IMG/VR virus record: IMGVR_UViG_2675903413_000005
Strand: one strand, 5' to 3'
DNA length: 22,174 nt
Origin: a virus
Lineage: Duplodnaviria; Heunggongvirae; Uroviricota; Caudoviricetes
Shown: piece by piece, positions 3,894 to 15,754 of the stretch
Layout: each line of letters starts with the position of its first letter
Numbering within the stretch: the first letter of the stretch is position 1
Position numbers and translations under genes: made by a program
The notes under the pieces: generated by a model
Told to the model about the DNA's origin: nothing
Databases searched by the model: none
The model's input: the letters and a program-made list of their open reading frames with translations, nothing else

Positions 3894-4138
3894 ATATTCA
3901 GCATCCCATGAATCGAGGGCAGGGCGGGGTATGTAATCATTCTGGCAATGCTTAATGCCGCTGCTTTTTCCAGATTGGTGATATCCTGCTCCAGAGCGGA
4001 CAGATTTTCAGCCTGCTTAGCCCTGGCTTCATTAGCCCATTTCAGATCCTGCGCTGCATTAATTTTCTGGCGCATCCACTCATAAAGTTCATCATCGGTA
4101 TAGTCTGGCGCGATGATGACGGGTTCTCGTTTCTGCAT
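3824..4138 (-). CDS. Hypothetical small early protein (3' end uncertain; overlaps the exonuclease start by about 70 nt)
   Basis: ORF beginning MQKREPVIIAPDYTDDELYEWMRQ...; the first ~60 residues look protein-like, the tail is low complexity; a shorter natural product or alternative exonuclease start is possible. Confidence 0.4.
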   Translation of the reverse strand: MQKREPVIIAPDYTDDELYEWMRQKINAAQDLKWANEARAKQAENLSALEQDITNLEKAAALSIARMITYPALPSIHGMLNICRKTAGMRSLLLLSRLRLNPIR

Positions 4139-4453: not shown

Positions 4454-4507
4454 GCTGACCTCATTTCCCCTTAACGCTGGGGTAACTGGACTGCCTGGGC
4501 CAATGAC

Positions 4508-4772: not shown

Positions 4773-5195
4773 GTGGCAAAAGTTTTTACACAAGAAGAGC
4801 GGGAAAAAATTAAATGGCAGGTGGTGGAACTCGTGCGCCAGAGCGGCCGTGAGACGTTACGGCAACTGGAAGCTAAAACAGGTGCGACTAGATATCTGAT
4901 GAGCGTTCTTGCCAGAGAGCTGGTAGCCAGTGGCGATGTATACAACTCCGGCTACGGGTTATTCCCCTCTGAACAGGCGCGTAAGGACTGGCAAAACGCC
5001 CGCAAAAAACTCTCGAGGGCAAAGGTGAAGAAACCTGCTGTGGTTGATCCGGACCTTATCTGGTCATCACCTGACGGAGAAATACGTCGCTACGACAGTC
5101 GCCTAAACATAATCTGTCGCGAGTGCCGGAAGAGCGAAGTTATGCAGCGCATACTGGCTTTCTATCAGGGTAATTTTCAGGACGTGGCGCAGTGA
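4773..5195 (+). CDS. Hypothetical 140-aa protein, possible HTH DNA-binding protein, translationally coupled to the downstream methyltransferase
   Basis: GTG start at 4773 with AAGGGGG Shine-Dalgarno at 4763-4769; stop overlaps the next start (GTGA at 5192-5195); N-terminal region RETLRQLEAKTGATRYLMSVLARELV is helix-turn-helix-like. Confidence 0.6.
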   Translation: MAKVFTQEEREKIKWQVVELVRQSGRETLRQLEAKTGATRYLMSVLARELVASGDVYNSGYGLFPSEQARKDWQNARKKLSRAKVKKPAVVDPDLIWSSPDGEIRRYDSRLNIICRECRKSEVMQRILAFYQGNFQDVAQ

Positions 5196-5548
5196 GTGCA
5201 CCGGCAACCATTCTTGATATGTGCTGTGGCAGCCGCATGTTCTGGTTCGATAAGTCTGACGAACGGGCGATATTCAGCGATATCAGAAAAGAAGGATACA
5301 CATTACGCAATGGGAGACGCTTGATTATCAGCCCTGACATTATCGCAGATTTTCGTGCATTATCATTTGCAGACGCATCTTTTTCGATGGTTGTATTAGA
5401 CCCTCCGCATCTTGAGAGTGTTGGTGATAACGCCTGGATGGGAAAGAAATATGGACGGCTGAATAAAGATGCCTGGCGTGATGATTCGCGACAGAGATTT
5501 AAAGAAGCCTTTCGGGTGTTGAGGCCGCACGGCGTTCTGATTTTTTAA
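5192..5548 (+). CDS. Small class-I SAM-dependent methyltransferase with DPPH motif (N6-adenine/N4-cytosine amino-methyltransferase type); possibly truncated
   Basis: Motif I-like DMCCGSRMFW near the N-terminus and catalytic motif IV VVLDPPH about 60 residues later; terminates at TAA 5546-5548 but the same frame stays open for 29 more codons (WNETQIPVSQILALTDRKPVICQRTGKKR). Confidence 0.65.
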   Translation: MSAPATILDMCCGSRMFWFDKSDERAIFSDIRKEGYTLRNGRRLIISPDIIADFRALSFADASFSMVVLDPPHLESVGDNAWMGKKYGRLNKDAWRDDSRQRFKEAFRVLRPHGVLIF

Positions 5549-5810
5549 TGGAATGAAACGCAAATACCGGTAAGCCAGATTCTGGCACTGACAGACAGAA
5601 AACCTGTTATCTGTCAACGAACAGGGAAAAAACGATAAAACCCACTGGATTATTTTTATGAAAGAGGCATCCAGTGAGTAGATTCGTAAGGCTACAGATA
5701 CGTATATCTGAATAATTAAATTCAGTTCTGTAAATAAAATTTAATCCTTAACCGGATGGATTTCTGCACCCTCAGAACATCAGGAGGCCGCCCGAAAGGG
5801 CGGTAGTGAA

Positions 5811-5993
5811 ATGCGAAAGTTCAAAATTATTATTGAAACGGGAATAGCTGGTGGAGATTTTGAGGATGTATTCGAAGTGGACGATGACGCAACACCTGAG
5901 GAAATTCATGACGGAGCATAAGAAATTTTCTTTAACTACTGCAATTACTCATACCACGAAATAAAAGACGATGAGGAAGAACAAAGTGGCTGA
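5811..5993 (+). pseudogene. Small ORF unit 1: 36 codons to TAA at 5919, frame open for 23 more codons to TGA 5991
   Basis: ATG 5811; MRKFKIIIETGIAGGDFEDVFEVDDDATPEEIHDGA then stop, then EIFFNYCNYSYHEIKDDEEEQSG; terminal TGA overlaps the start of unit 2. Could equally be an intact 36-aa peptide gene. Confidence 0.3.
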
Positions 5994-6162
5994 TTTTTGT
6001 TCAGCTAAATATAACATCAGTTTTGAAGAGCGGGATGAACTATTAATGGACTATGGTGAGTTACGCGGTGGAAGTGCTGCTGATGTCGAATCCTAGCGTG
6101 ATGACTATGAAGCGGGAAAAACTCCGGTCGAAGCATATTGTGATGAGTGGGGCGATGAATGA
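5986..6162 (+). pseudogene. Small ORF unit 2: 36 codons to TAG at 6094, frame open for 21 more codons to TGA 6160
   Basis: GTG 5986 with GAGGA Shine-Dalgarno at 5973-5977; VADFCSAKYNISFEERDELLMDYGELRGGSAADVES then stop, then RDDYEAGKTPVEAYCDEWGDE; terminal TGA overlaps the ATG of unit 3 (ATGA). Confidence 0.3.
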
Positions 6163-6446
6163 GCGAGATTAATTATCAGGAAGGGCATGAAACGGCGGGG
6201 CAAGCAAAACCAGTGGCATGGCGATATCGCTACGTGAAAAAAGGCGTTACGGACTTTCAGGGGAAGTAGTGGTCTGGTGACTGGAAATATGTACCGAAAA
6301 AAGAGGATTGTAACGACAGGCCGAACTATCAAATTCAGGCCTTATTCACTGCCTCACCAGTCCCAGTTACATCAGAAGAACTGGTTAAAGCTGTGCACTT
6401 TTATGAACAACTAAAACGCGAAAATCCACCAACATCCGGCAACTAG
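6159..6446 (+). pseudogene. Small ORF unit 3: 36 codons to TAG at 6267, frame open for 58 more codons
   Basis: ATG 6159; MSEINYQEGHETAGQAKPVAWRYRYVKKGVTDFQGK then stop, then WSGDWKYVPKKEDCNDRPNYQIQALFTASPVPVTSEELVKAVHFYEQLKRENPPTSGN; protein-like composition on both sides of the stop. Confidence 0.35.
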
Positions 6447-6700
6447 ATTAATGGATTAACTATGTCGGTTAAACGACCAGCCAACTGAAAAAGCGGAAAC
6501 CTGATTACAGGTTGCCAGATAAGGCAATGAGCTACCTGGCGCGGAACGGACTGATAAGTATGGGGAATGTTTTACGATGAACCTTTAGACTAAAGAGTTT
6601 GTAACGCTATGTAAGTGATTTTTTCTGGTTTAGATATTTATATGTCCGGCCAAATTGAGGTGTGTTTAAATGTAATTGCACATTGATTGTAGGAGGAATA

Positions 6701-6880
6701 ATGAAAAACGCATTGCAGTTTTTGTTTGTTGCGTTCTGGTTGTTCGCATCATGTATGCCCATCATCTTCACAGCAAGGTATATGGAAAAAGTTGATGTTT
6801 TGATATTAATATTTGGATATATAAATGCCCTTTTTTTAGGGGTGTTCATGGCGGTCATGTGCATTGAATACTGGCGGTAA
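6701..6880 (+). CDS. Small hydrophobic membrane protein with two predicted transmembrane helices (59 aa)
   Basis: Canonical AGGAGG Shine-Dalgarno 6 nt before ATG 6701; MKNALQFLFVAFWLFASCMPIIFTARYMEKVDVLILIFGYINALFLGVFMAVMCIEYWR; AT-rich codon usage unlike its neighbours. Confidence 0.6.
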   Translation: MKNALQFLFVAFWLFASCMPIIFTARYMEKVDVLILIFGYINALFLGVFMAVMCIEYWR

Positions 6881-7186
6881 ATACAGCGAACTCCATTGGT
6901 TTAGTTGGATATTTACTGTGCTGGACAAAAACGGTTTGCGGGGAAATCTTAGTTAAGTAGAATGACTGCGGGTGCTTGAGGCTATCTGCCTCGGGCATGG
7001 ACACCAACGGCAGATAGAGAAAAGCCCCAGTTAACATTACGCGTCCTGCAAGACGCTTAACATTAATCTGAGGCCAATTTCATGCTAGACACATGTAGGT
7101 TAGCCTCTTACGTGCCGAAAGGCACGGAGAAGCAGGCTATTGTTAACACCAAGCTGTAATGTCCCCTTTGAACCATTCTAAAATGT

Positions 7187-7214: not shown

Positions 7215-8528
7215 ATGATCAAAGAGACTGTTACGATGAGTCATAAGGAACTCCACCGACTTCAGATTATTCAGGAACAAGCTGCGGCACGCATTGGCAT
7301 TTCTATTCGGCAGGTTAAACGTCTGGTGCAACGGTATAGAAATGAAGGGCCTTCTGGTCTGGTTTCCCACCGACGTGGAAAGCGTCCTAATAATTCCTTT
7401 TCTACTGAATTCAGAGCAACAGTAATTTCACTCCTCAAAGGCCGTTACGCTGATTTTGGACCTACGTTTGCGTGCGAAAAATTGCGCGAGATACACGGTT
7501 TATCTTTATCCGTTGAAACTCTCAGAAAGTGGATGATAGAAGAGGGGTTATGGCGTGAACGCCGTCGTAAAATTGCCCGTATATATCAACGCCGCATGCG
7601 ACGACCATCTTACGGTGAACTGATCCAGATTGATGGCTCACCTCATGACTGGTTTGAAAATCGAGGCCCCAGATGTACACTGATCGTTTTCATTGATGAT
7701 GCCACCAGTGCGTTGATGGCGTTGCGTTTTGTGCCTGCTGAAACAACCCGGGCTTACATGGAAACCCTCCGGGGTTACCTTAATGATCATGGCGTACCGC
7801 TCGCTCTCTACTCTGATAGACACAGTATATTCAGGGTAAATAACCCAGAGCGGGAAGGTGAGCTGACCCAGTTCACTCGTGCGATAAAGACACTGGGCAT
7901 CGAGCCAATCCATGCCAACAGCCCGCAGGCAAAAGGGCGGGTAGAGCGCGCCAATCAGACACTACAGGACAGGCTGGTCAAAGAAATGCGGCTTCAGAAT
8001 ATCAGTGATATTGAAACAGCAAATGCATGGTTGCCGACCTTTATTGAAGCCTATAACAACCGATTCGCTACGTCGCCTCGTACTACTGATAATGCTCATC
8101 TTGATGTGCACCATTCTGAAGAGGAACTGGGTTATATCTTCAGCCTACAGGCGAAGCGCGTTCTGTCTAAAAATCTCACTTTCCAGTACAAAAGCAGTGC
8201 GTTTCAGGTACGCAGTGAGGGCCGGGGATATCGACTTAGGCATTCGGTTGTTACTGTATGCGAGAACTTTGACGGTGAAATTAACGTTCTGTATGACGGG
8301 AAAGCGCTGGGCTGGGAAAAGTATGTTGATGGCCCGGAGCCTATACCACTGGATGATGAAAAGAGTGTCCATGAACGAGTGGATAATGCCCGTATTGATT
8401 TACGCTCAAAATACTATGTTAAACCTAAAGCTGACCATCCCTGGCTTACGCGCCGAACGCAAAGTCATCAGCAAGTTAAGCCCCCGAAGTTACCTAAAAA
8501 GAAGCCTGATCCCGATAAAAAAGATTGA
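7215..8528 (+). CDS. DDE transposase, rve (integrase-core) superfamily, IS481/ISNCY-like
   Basis: 437-aa ORF; N-terminal HTH-like region; DDE triad in typical context (LIQIDGSPHDW ... LYSDRHSIF ... ANSPQAKGRVERANQTLQDRL); single uninterrupted ORF. Confidence 0.85.
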   Translation: MIKETVTMSHKELHRLQIIQEQAAARIGISIRQVKRLVQRYRNEGPSGLVSHRRGKRPNNSFSTEFRATVISLLKGRYADFGPTFACEKLREIHGLSLSVETLRKWMIEEGLWRERRRKIARIYQRRMRRPSYGELIQIDGSPHDWFENRGPRCTLIVFIDDATSALMALRFVPAETTRAYMETLRGYLNDHGVPLALYSDRHSIFRVNNPEREGELTQFTRAIKTLGIEPIHANSPQAKGRVERANQTLQDRLVKEMRLQNISDIETANAWLPTFIEAYNNRFATSPRTTDNAHLDVHHSEEELGYIFSLQAKRVLSKNLTFQYKSSAFQVRSEGRGYRLRHSVVTVCENFDGEINVLYDGKALGWEKYVDGPEPIPLDDEKSVHERVDNARIDLRSKYYVKPKADHPWLTRRTQSHQQVKPPKLPKKKPDPDKKD

Positions 8529-12150: not shown

Positions 12151-12450
12151 AAAAATTCCTTAATACTGATAACTTGGCGCACTATACACACGTTCCTGAA
12201 GAAAGCTATAGTTTTTTGATGGGGTTGAAGATGGCTGGATGTCTAAAATAAACATTGCTTCATATGTTCAACTATGCGTTAATGATTGCGTCGGTTTGAA
12301 GAACAGACGATATACGAAGTAGTTTACTAAAGCAGTTCTCATTTCAGGTGTTATTCACTTATTCCTTCTTTGAGTCTCTCCAATTAAGTACGAAGTCGTT
12401 TCTGTTATGCAAACCATTTATGCCGAAAGGCTCAAGTTAAGGAATGTAGA

Positions 12451-12666
12451 ATGTCAAATAAAATGACTGGTTTAGTAAAATGGTTTAACGCTGATAAAGG
12501 TTTCGGCTTTATTTCTCCTGTTGATGGTAGTAAAGATGTGTTTGTGCATTTTTCTGCGATTCAGAATGATAATTATCGAACCTTATTTGAAGGTCAAAAG
12601 GTTACCTTCTCTATAGAGAGTGGTGCTAAAGGTCCTGCAGCAGCAAATGTCATCATTACTGATTAA
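12451..12666 (+). CDS. cspB: Cold-shock protein CspB-like
   Basis: 71-aa [74 protein letters not shown] with RNP motifs; long AT-rich 5' leader (12151-12450). Confidence 0.9.
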
Positions 12667-12947
12667 AATTCATCGCTCGTCTGTATACGATAACGAAGAA
12701 GGCTGATGCCTGAGTAGAGATACGGACAGAGTAGTGAATATTGGATCTCTTTAATAAAAAGTAAGGAGGTCCAATACATGAAACAATGGCTAGCATATTT
12801 GGCAAAATCTTAATCAGGAAAAGTATGCTAACCATTGTGGTGAAGTGCAGGTTTGCTGCATGAATAGTTTTACAGCAGAAGCTAACTGCTGGCATGGCAA
12901 AACAAAGTGCGTAAGTGGATGACTCCCACAAAAAGCACCACAATCTC

Positions 12948-14975: not shown

Positions 14976-15337
14976 GGTAATATTAAATCGGAACATTTAC
15001 ATCGCGGAATGTAAAATTTAAATAAAAAGGACTCTTCCATGAGCCAAAATTCCTGAAATCTTAAGGGTAAGATAAAAGGTCTTAATCAGAATGACACGTT
15101 TTATTAATAAATAAAGCTATTCTTTCATTGCTGTGTTTTTCTTTACAAAAGTAATCCTTGCTATGGGTGGTTAATCATGCGTTAATGGTGTTCTGGTTTG
15201 TTACAAATTTATCTGAAGCAGTCATTGTTATAATTTTATTATTTGTACCTCTTGAGATTTCCTTGTTGGTTTTTCTCTCTGATATTTTTTTTCGGACCAT
15301 TCTGCCCAAGGGCTAATTTCTTCAAAAGGTAATAATT

Positions 15338-15550
15338 ATGTCTAACAAAATGACTGGTTTAGTGAAATGGTTTAACCCTGAAAAAGGTTTTGGTTTCATC
15401 ACGCCGAAAGATGGCAGCAAAGATGTGTTTGTCCATTTCTCAGCAATTCAGAGCAACGATTTCAAAACATTAACTGAGAATCAGGAAGTTGAATTTGGTA
15501 TTGAGAACGGACCTAAAGGTCCTGCCGCTGTTCATGTAGTGGCGCTTTGA
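15338..15550 (+). CDS. cspI: Cold-shock protein CspI-like
   Basis: 70-aa [73 protein letters not shown]; long AT-rich leader (14976-15337). Confidence 0.9.
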
Positions 15551-15754
15551 GGTAGACAATATTACAAACCATATTCACTTTAGATGCCCGTGTTGTCATG
15601 GTTCCCAGTATAGAACATCATCTTTTGATGTTTCTGACATGAATCCTTTCGGGGCAAAATGTATCTTTTGTAAATCAATGATGATTACATTTGATAATAT
15701 TTCACAATACTTAAATGCCAGCCGTCTGTCGTTGGATTTAAAAAAGTGAAAATG

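Follow-up and report, generated by a model that had tools for sequence, protein, structure and literature searches.

The region at positions 5811–6446 of the window (the whole stretch of 22,174 nucleotides that was analyzed) is, with little room for doubt, a set of dead genes of the Qin cryptic prophage of Escherichia coli, each with its own inactivating stop codon, in which the decay is ordinary and the codon index shared by the three stops is coincidental. Sequence comparison established the homology of the genes across their stops, the ancestral codons at those positions, the presence of extra lesions, the relaxed pattern of substitution, and the separability of the decay of unit 3. From the same comparisons we infer that the 36-codon stubs would not be functional. 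The locus is a case of ordinary pseudogenization already largely captured in public annotation: PGAP/RefSeq gives unit 1 as a "DUF7167 family protein, internal stop" pseudogene and unit 3 as a "hypothetical protein, frameshifted; internal stop" pseudogene, and unit 2 has no annotation in RefSeq for the Qin-type locus.

Location and layout of the locus

In matching genomes the region was flanked by dicA/dicC, relBE, hokD, cspB/F/I, and flxA, which identifies the window as Qin, a lambdoid cryptic prophage of E. coli. The gene order in matching chromosomes was dicB/dicA/dicC, a replication gene, a DUF977 gene, the methyltransferase, and units 1 to 3, followed on the 3' side by an ISNCY transposase, ydfW, flxA, relBE, hokD, csp genes, a lysis cassette, and terminase remnants. 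Qin is a "grounded", mutation-prone prophage found in approximately 48% of E. coli/Shigella genomes (PMC6379469). At an identity of 99% or above, the 636-nt stretch recurred in 505 complete records of E. coli, which came from unrelated strains, hosts, and lineages; a sequencing or assembly artifact was therefore excluded, since hundreds of independent complete genomes carried the identical sequence. The locus occurs in roughly 1,960 E. coli genomes, and the natural Qin-type strains E. coli W and ATCC 8739 were 100% identical to the window here.

Several other features of the window were observed. Compared with the closest genomes (N61, L084, and L001), the Qin copy in the window was without two blocks, with junctions at 3927–3933 and 4483–4484. 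The first absent block was approximately 1.24 kb long and contained ydfD and dicB. The second, of approximately 1.7–2.1 kb, spanned dicA, dicC, a ydaT-like gene, and the replication gene's 5' portion. This copy has therefore lost both the cell-division inhibitor and the region of its repressor. N61 had the best coverage among 5,426 E. coli genomes and was the sole full-window match among the matches listed, in three pieces rather than one. An Rfam match to sok antitoxin RNA (104 bits, above the gathering score) was located at 6970–7141 on the plus strand, and directly 3' of it an intact-looking ISNCY-family transposase ORF of 437 aa occupied 7215–8528 (plus strand). Since relatives carry a hok ("host killer"/hokD-like) gene at this place, the insertion sequence may have interrupted a second Qin hok/sok locus. 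Two Rfam matches to the cspA thermoregulator were found at 12290–12682 and 15192–15577; judged by their offset from the N61 annotation, they match the leader regions of cspB and cspI, two known cold-shock genes of Qin. On the plus strand, an ORF from ATG 6701 to 6880 behind taggaggaataATG encoded a hydrophobic, membrane-protein-like sequence of approximately 59 aa. It was overlapped on the minus strand by an 85-aa ORF at 6607–6864, which is the one annotated in phage records ("hornerin"/hypothetical), and neither of the two was annotated by PGAP in the E. coli records viewed.

The geometry of the three ORFs given in an earlier note on this DNA was reproduced exactly. Unit 1 ran from ATG 5811 to TAA 5919–5921, unit 2 from GTG 5986 to TAG 6094–6096, and unit 3 from ATG 6159 to TAG 6267–6269, each with 36 codons before the stop. 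After the stop the frame stayed open for 23 codons to TGA 5991–5993 in unit 1, for 21 codons to TGA 6160–6162 in unit 2, and for 58 codons to TAG 6444–6446 in unit 3. The stop/start overlaps GTGGCTGA (5986–5993) and ATGA (6159–6162) were present as described, and so was the TAA at 5546 in the methyltransferase gene, followed by 29 open codons to TAA 5636. The mechanical ORF list began unit 2 at an in-frame upstream ATG at 5971 (41 aa); GTG 5986 occupies the position homologous to the ATG start codon of the intact relatives, and this alignment justified both the choice of start for unit 2 and the count that places its stop at codon 37.

Upstream of unit 1, the ribosome-binding region (5782–5804, plus strand) contained a Shine-Dalgarno sequence, AGGAGG (5782–5787), followed by a hairpin before ATG 5811. 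The hairpin had a stem formed by 5787–5793 and 5798–5804 (GCCGCCC/GGGCGGU) closed by a GAAA tetraloop, and the predicted RNA fold of the region had a free energy of -17.4 kcal/mol (z = -3.2). The region was invariant in the alignment with phage 640R1. The AGGAGG lay 23 nt 5' of the ATG with the hairpin in between (5782–5813), an arrangement that looks like a "split" ribosome-binding site, in which the hairpin would bring the Shine-Dalgarno sequence near the start codon. The AT-rich spacer between the methyltransferase gene and unit 1 contained an inverted repeat, CTGAAT-AATTAA-ATTCAG (5708–5725). Most of this repeat is kept in phage 640R1, and it may serve as a binding site for a protein.

Intact relatives and the lesions of each gene

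We collected 80 IMG/VR loci with unit 1 as the query and 80 more with an intact unit 3 as the query. At the same place, related phages and prophages had intact overlapping ORFs of 60, 58, and 171 aa. Among the 160 loci, unit 1 encoded 60 aa in 113, unit 2 encoded 58 aa in 115, and unit 3 encoded 171 aa in 89, with a C-terminal variant of 119 aa in 8; the 36-aa forms were confined to 3–5 nearly identical alleles of one haplotype. Phage vB_EcoS-640R1 had overlapping ORFs of 60 and 58 aa at the site of units 1 and 2; its codons were AAA where the window has TAA 5919, TGG where it has TAG 6094, and ATG where it has GTG 5986.

Unit 1 (5811–5993, plus strand) is a gene of the DUF7167 family with 60 codons when intact, inactivated by a K37-to-stop change (AAA to TAA, A to T at 5919). 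Its readthrough translation matched Pfam DUF7167 over profile positions 1–60 of 60 (E = 9.9e-14) and phrog_1997 over positions 1–57 of 57 (E = 1.6e-29), and codon 37 was AAA in all 16 intact haplotypes. DUF7167 was the sole Pfam match for unit 1, and Pfam gave none for units 2 and 3. Searches of PDB sequences with the intact proteins returned spurious weak matches only, and literature searches on DUF7167 and PhiR42_1 found nothing.

Unit 2 (5986–6162, plus strand), a gene of the phrog_519 family with 58 codons when intact, shared 8 nt with unit 1 and 4 nt with unit 3. It carried a W37-to-stop change (TGG to TAG, G to A at 6095), and its start codon had degraded from ATG to GTG at 5986 (M1V). 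An ATG start and TGG at codon 37 were found in 24 of 24 intact haplotypes. The readthrough translation matched phrog_519 over residues 1–58 (E = 1.6e-13), and a scan of species-representative genomes with unit 2 gave no confirmed relatives.

Unit 3 (6159–6580, plus strand), a gene of the phrog_660 family with 171 codons when intact, had at least four lesions, of which those 3' of codon 37 were read from the DNA alignment to intact 171-codon genes. The first was the TAG at codon 37 (6267–6269), where intact relatives had ATG, CAG, CCG, or TCG. Between two "(E/D)NPP" repeats, 90 nt had been lost in frame at 6422/6423. A second nonsense change, CAG to TAG, was found at 6444–6446, where the aligned CAG lies approximately 125 codons from the start of the intact gene, and the loss of 4 nt at approximately 6477/6478 shifted the frame. 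The true C-terminus, LPDKAMSYLARNGLISMGNVLR, persisted in another frame and ended at the natural stop, TGA 6578–6580. The match to phrog_660 (E = 2.3e-28) crossed the stop at codon 37. The "58-codon extension" of the earlier note consequently ended at a stop that is itself the second premature stop of the gene. Indels in the A-run 5' of TAG 6267 were segregating among Qin-type copies and hit the unit 3 stub in several.

The methyltransferase pseudogene (5192–5666, plus strand) carried a nonsense change and a 1-nt insertion. The former was K119 to stop (AAA to TAA at 5546–5548, with AAA in intact relatives), and the latter was an extra G in the GGG run at 5623–5625, where relatives had GG ("AACAGG-AAAAAA"), which shifted the frame of the conserved C-terminal segment "KTHWIIFMK". 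The repaired translation matched the phrog_954 DNA methyltransferase over residues 5–161 (E = 6.7e-80), and intact homologues were approximately 160 aa long. In RefSeq, the 118-aa stub (ORF 5192–5548) is entered as WP_001310834.1, a normal "class I SAM-dependent methyltransferase".

All four genes thus displayed full-length family matches across their stops and sense codons and open ORFs in their orthologues, and constraint was relaxed on the Qin branch for units 1 and 2 together (on small counts). The protein-like appearance of the text on both sides of the stops, on which the earlier note had remarked, was borne out by profile matches of the readthrough translations that ran across the stops, and the homologues proved continuous there, the profile families being matched end to end. 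That note had left decay, a family of short peptides, and readthrough side by side, and had proposed that homologous loci with sense codons at these positions and no regularity at codon 37 would mark plain pseudogenes. Such loci were found, and of its three readings decay is upheld, and the peptide family and readthrough are not.

Every Qin-type copy had the TAA and the extra G in the methyltransferase gene, the TAA in unit 1, the GTG and TAG in unit 2, and the TAG in unit 3; in one such copy TAG 6094 had since become TAA. Every other lineage had AAA in the methyltransferase gene, AAA in unit 1, ATG and TGG in unit 2, and ATG, CAG, CCG, or TCG in unit 3. The lesions of the methyltransferase gene, unit 1, and unit 2 always occurred together on one haplotype. 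E. coli 23CRST022 (L165, 1201–1970) had intact units 1 and 2, both annotated as normal CDSs in its RefSeq genome, next to a unit 3 with all four lesions of the window. Approximately one-third of the evenly spaced sample rows resembled the 23CRST022 type (H65–H85), one of which was inspected (H66, L165), and a haplotype with intact units 1 and 2 and a decayed unit 3 appears to be common in E. coli chromosomes. The occurrence of intact units 1 and 2 beside a decayed unit 3 in many genomes indicated that the stop of unit 3 is historically separate from the other two.

Phage vB_EcoS-640R1 (L003, 2552–3157) was likewise a mosaic of intact units 1 and 2 and a decayed Qin-type unit 3. In the mosaic haplotypes the recombination boundary fell close to the 3' end of unit 2, a stretch that has the same sequence in every lineage. 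A +2 A insertion in 640R1 created a spurious 85-aa out-of-frame ORF that has been annotated as a gene.

The history best supported by these observations is as follows. In functional relatives, the early rightward operon 3' of the replication genes consists of the methyltransferase gene and three unrelated small genes, whose products are a DUF7167 protein of 60 aa, an acidic protein of 58 aa, and a protein of 171 aa. The stop/start overlaps of the intact relatives (ATGGCTGA and ATGA) suggested that these genes are probably translationally coupled, and such coupling would also have operated in the ancestor. The coupling proposed in the earlier note is a property of the ancestral genes in their intact form (60, 58, and 171 aa) and not of the 36-codon units. 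Once the prophage was grounded, the module in the Qin lineage would no longer have been selected, and each gene gained its own inactivating mutations; an early stop in an upstream gene would remove the coupled translation of the next gene and so relax selection further. The open in-frame extensions are the rest of the old coding sequence, too recent to have acquired further stops.

Substitution pattern, codon 37, and alternative readings

A change was assigned to the Qin branch when the window differed from every intact haplotype at that site. On this branch, unit 1 had 4 nonsynonymous changes, 1 nonsense change, and 1 synonymous change; unit 2 had 8 nonsynonymous (M1V included), 1 nonsense, and 4 synonymous changes; the first 90 codons of unit 3 had 6 nonsynonymous and 5 synonymous changes plus the stop; and the methyltransferase gene had 17 nonsynonymous, 1 nonsense, and 16 synonymous changes. 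For units 1 and 2 together, the ratio of nonsynonymous or nonsense to synonymous changes was 14:5 among those fixed on the Qin branch and 26:42 among polymorphisms of the intact clade (Fisher p = 0.009, with small counts), and the same contrast for the four genes together was marginal (p = 0.057). Constraint thus looks relaxed on the Qin branch, and the substitutions look neutral. Stops arise from approximately 4–6% of random substitutions in these genes. Units 1 to 3 had 3 stops against approximately 1.6 expected (P = 0.21), and with the methyltransferase gene included there were 4 against approximately 2.9 (P = 0.32). An excess of nonsense mutations was not supported, the number of stops fitting neutral drift.

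The Qin-branch substitutions of unit 2 were clustered (5998–6095) at 6030/6031/6034, 6056/6057, and 6086/6091/6095, and those of unit 1 at 5900/5914/5919 were likewise close together. Events that changed several nucleotides at once, or recombination with a lineage outside the sample, may account for the clusters in the two units.

We considered whether the 36-aa N-terminal stubs could be genuine small-protein genes, retained or newly exploited after truncation. Unit 1 retains a strong Shine-Dalgarno sequence and an ATG, the haplotype is nearly invariant in approximately 500 genomes, and the equality of the stub lengths is striking. Against this, the 36-aa forms belonged to the single Qin-type haplotype, all other lineages being full length, and the three stubs had no sequence similarity to one another. 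No sign of purifying selection on the stubs was seen among 44 Qin-type copies, in which the polymorphism inside the stubs was 7 nonsynonymous to 2 synonymous and the SNP density was equal to that of the flanks. Unit 2 now starts with GTG and has 8 fixed nonsynonymous changes, and the A-run indels disrupt the stub of unit 3 in several copies. We consider functional stubs of this kind highly improbable.

The agreement of the three stops at codon 37 was examined with a mutation model built from the ancestral sequences, in which only codons one substitution away from a stop were counted, at kappa values of 1 and 2. The model gave a chance of 0.7–1.9e-4 (approximately 1 in 5,000 to 1 in 13,000) that the first stops of three genes would independently coincide in codon index, for a pattern picked post hoc. 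The surprise expressed in the earlier note is therefore justified numerically (approximately 1e-4 a priori), but the pattern was chosen after the fact and no mechanism behind it was supported. If the match were not random, it could reflect a mutational bias at a fixed distance from coupled starts, or a selected truncation that silences a toxic operon, and the Qin-branch substitutions that lie near the stops in unit 1 (5900, 5914, and 5919) and unit 2 (6086, 6091, and 6095) could be taken, together with the low a priori chance, to favor this. However, the substitution types and ancestral codons of the stops differed: AAA to TAA by A to T in unit 1, TGG to TAG by G to A in unit 2, and, in unit 3, a TAG one step from CAG or TCG, probably by C to T from CAG. 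Codon 37 was not hit again in approximately 115 intact-lineage loci, and independent truncations of unit 3 elsewhere left products of 20, 70, 129, 132, and 156 aa. The other nonsense codons of the segment, at codon 119 of the methyltransferase gene and at TAG 6444 in unit 3, also lie at other positions, the stop of unit 3 occurs in many genomes that have neither of the other two, and the pattern had been selected post hoc from a genome-wide reading. A bias or selected truncation of this sort is accordingly very doubtful, and no mutational hotspot at codon 37 was seen in approximately 115 independent intact-lineage loci.

The three units had no significant matches to one another in blastp or blastn, and no tandem repeat or periodicity was found across them. 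A paralogous or tandem array was rejected on these grounds. The "array" of equal 36-codon ORFs with designed extensions described in the earlier note thus dissolves into genes unrelated in sequence, with stops that came from different codons by different substitutions, and with a unit 3 stop that is found in many genomes without those of units 1 and 2. That each of the three genes has its first stop at codon 37 is coincidental. To any cause other than chance, be it position-dependent mutagenesis or selection at a fixed distance from the coupled starts, or functional micropeptide stubs of approximately 36 aa, we assign only a very small probability.

Least credible of all, and close to negligible, is the reading that the stops are read through, by a programmed mechanism or a suppressor tRNA, to yield full-length proteins at a regulated low level: the frame does stay open past each stop with downstream text that is still protein-like, and amber-suppressor strains would read both TAGs (some laboratory strains carry the amber suppressor supE44), but the homologues have sense codons rather than conserved stops, UAA, which leaks least of the stop codons in E. 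coli, accounts for two of the four, and the substitution pattern is relaxed. The indels and second TAG in unit 3 and the frameshift in the methyltransferase gene also mean that readthrough could not restore these proteins. ARAGORN found no tRNA gene in the window, and at 5192–6600 no Rfam family reached the gathering score, the only matches in the window being the sok RNA at 6970–7141 and the two cspA elements elsewhere; both results stand against readthrough.

Significance and comparison with known systems

The biological weight of ordinary decay at this locus is small: such loss of genes is textbook behavior for a grounded prophage, and public annotation already lists units 1 and 3 as pseudogenes. 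It serves as a caution that chance can produce a numerical regularity, here the shared codon 37 of three stops, which vanishes when homologues are compared. With the methyltransferase stub entered in RefSeq as an ordinary protein and unit 2 left unannotated, the locus could mislead surveys of small ORFs or "de novo genes" in Qin. The intact module (DUF7167, phrog_519, and phrog_660) is widespread in lambdoid phages of E. coli and is a more interesting target than the decayed copy.

Among known systems, programmed stop-codon readthrough shares with the locus the open in-frame continuation after the stop. It differs in that the stops here were not conserved among homologues and were UAA and UAG rather than the leakier UGA, that no stimulatory element was found, and that further lesions lay downstream. 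With the coupled early accessory genes of lambdoid phages, the intact relatives share the 8-nt (ATGGCTGA) and 4-nt (ATGA) overlaps and the location 3' of the replication genes. Unlike these, the window had premature stops 62–64 nt before the next start, so that coupling has presumably been lost. The closest likeness was to the pseudogenes of cryptic ("grounded") E. coli prophages such as Qin, Rac, DLP12, e14, and CP4-57, to which the locus, being Qin itself with several independent lesions, corresponds. Shared as well were the relaxed ratio of nonsynonymous to synonymous changes, the neighboring IS insertion and deletions, and the occurrence of intact orthologues among related phages. Nothing substantive set the locus apart from such pseudogenes, and its sole curiosity was the first stop at codon 37 in three neighboring genes.
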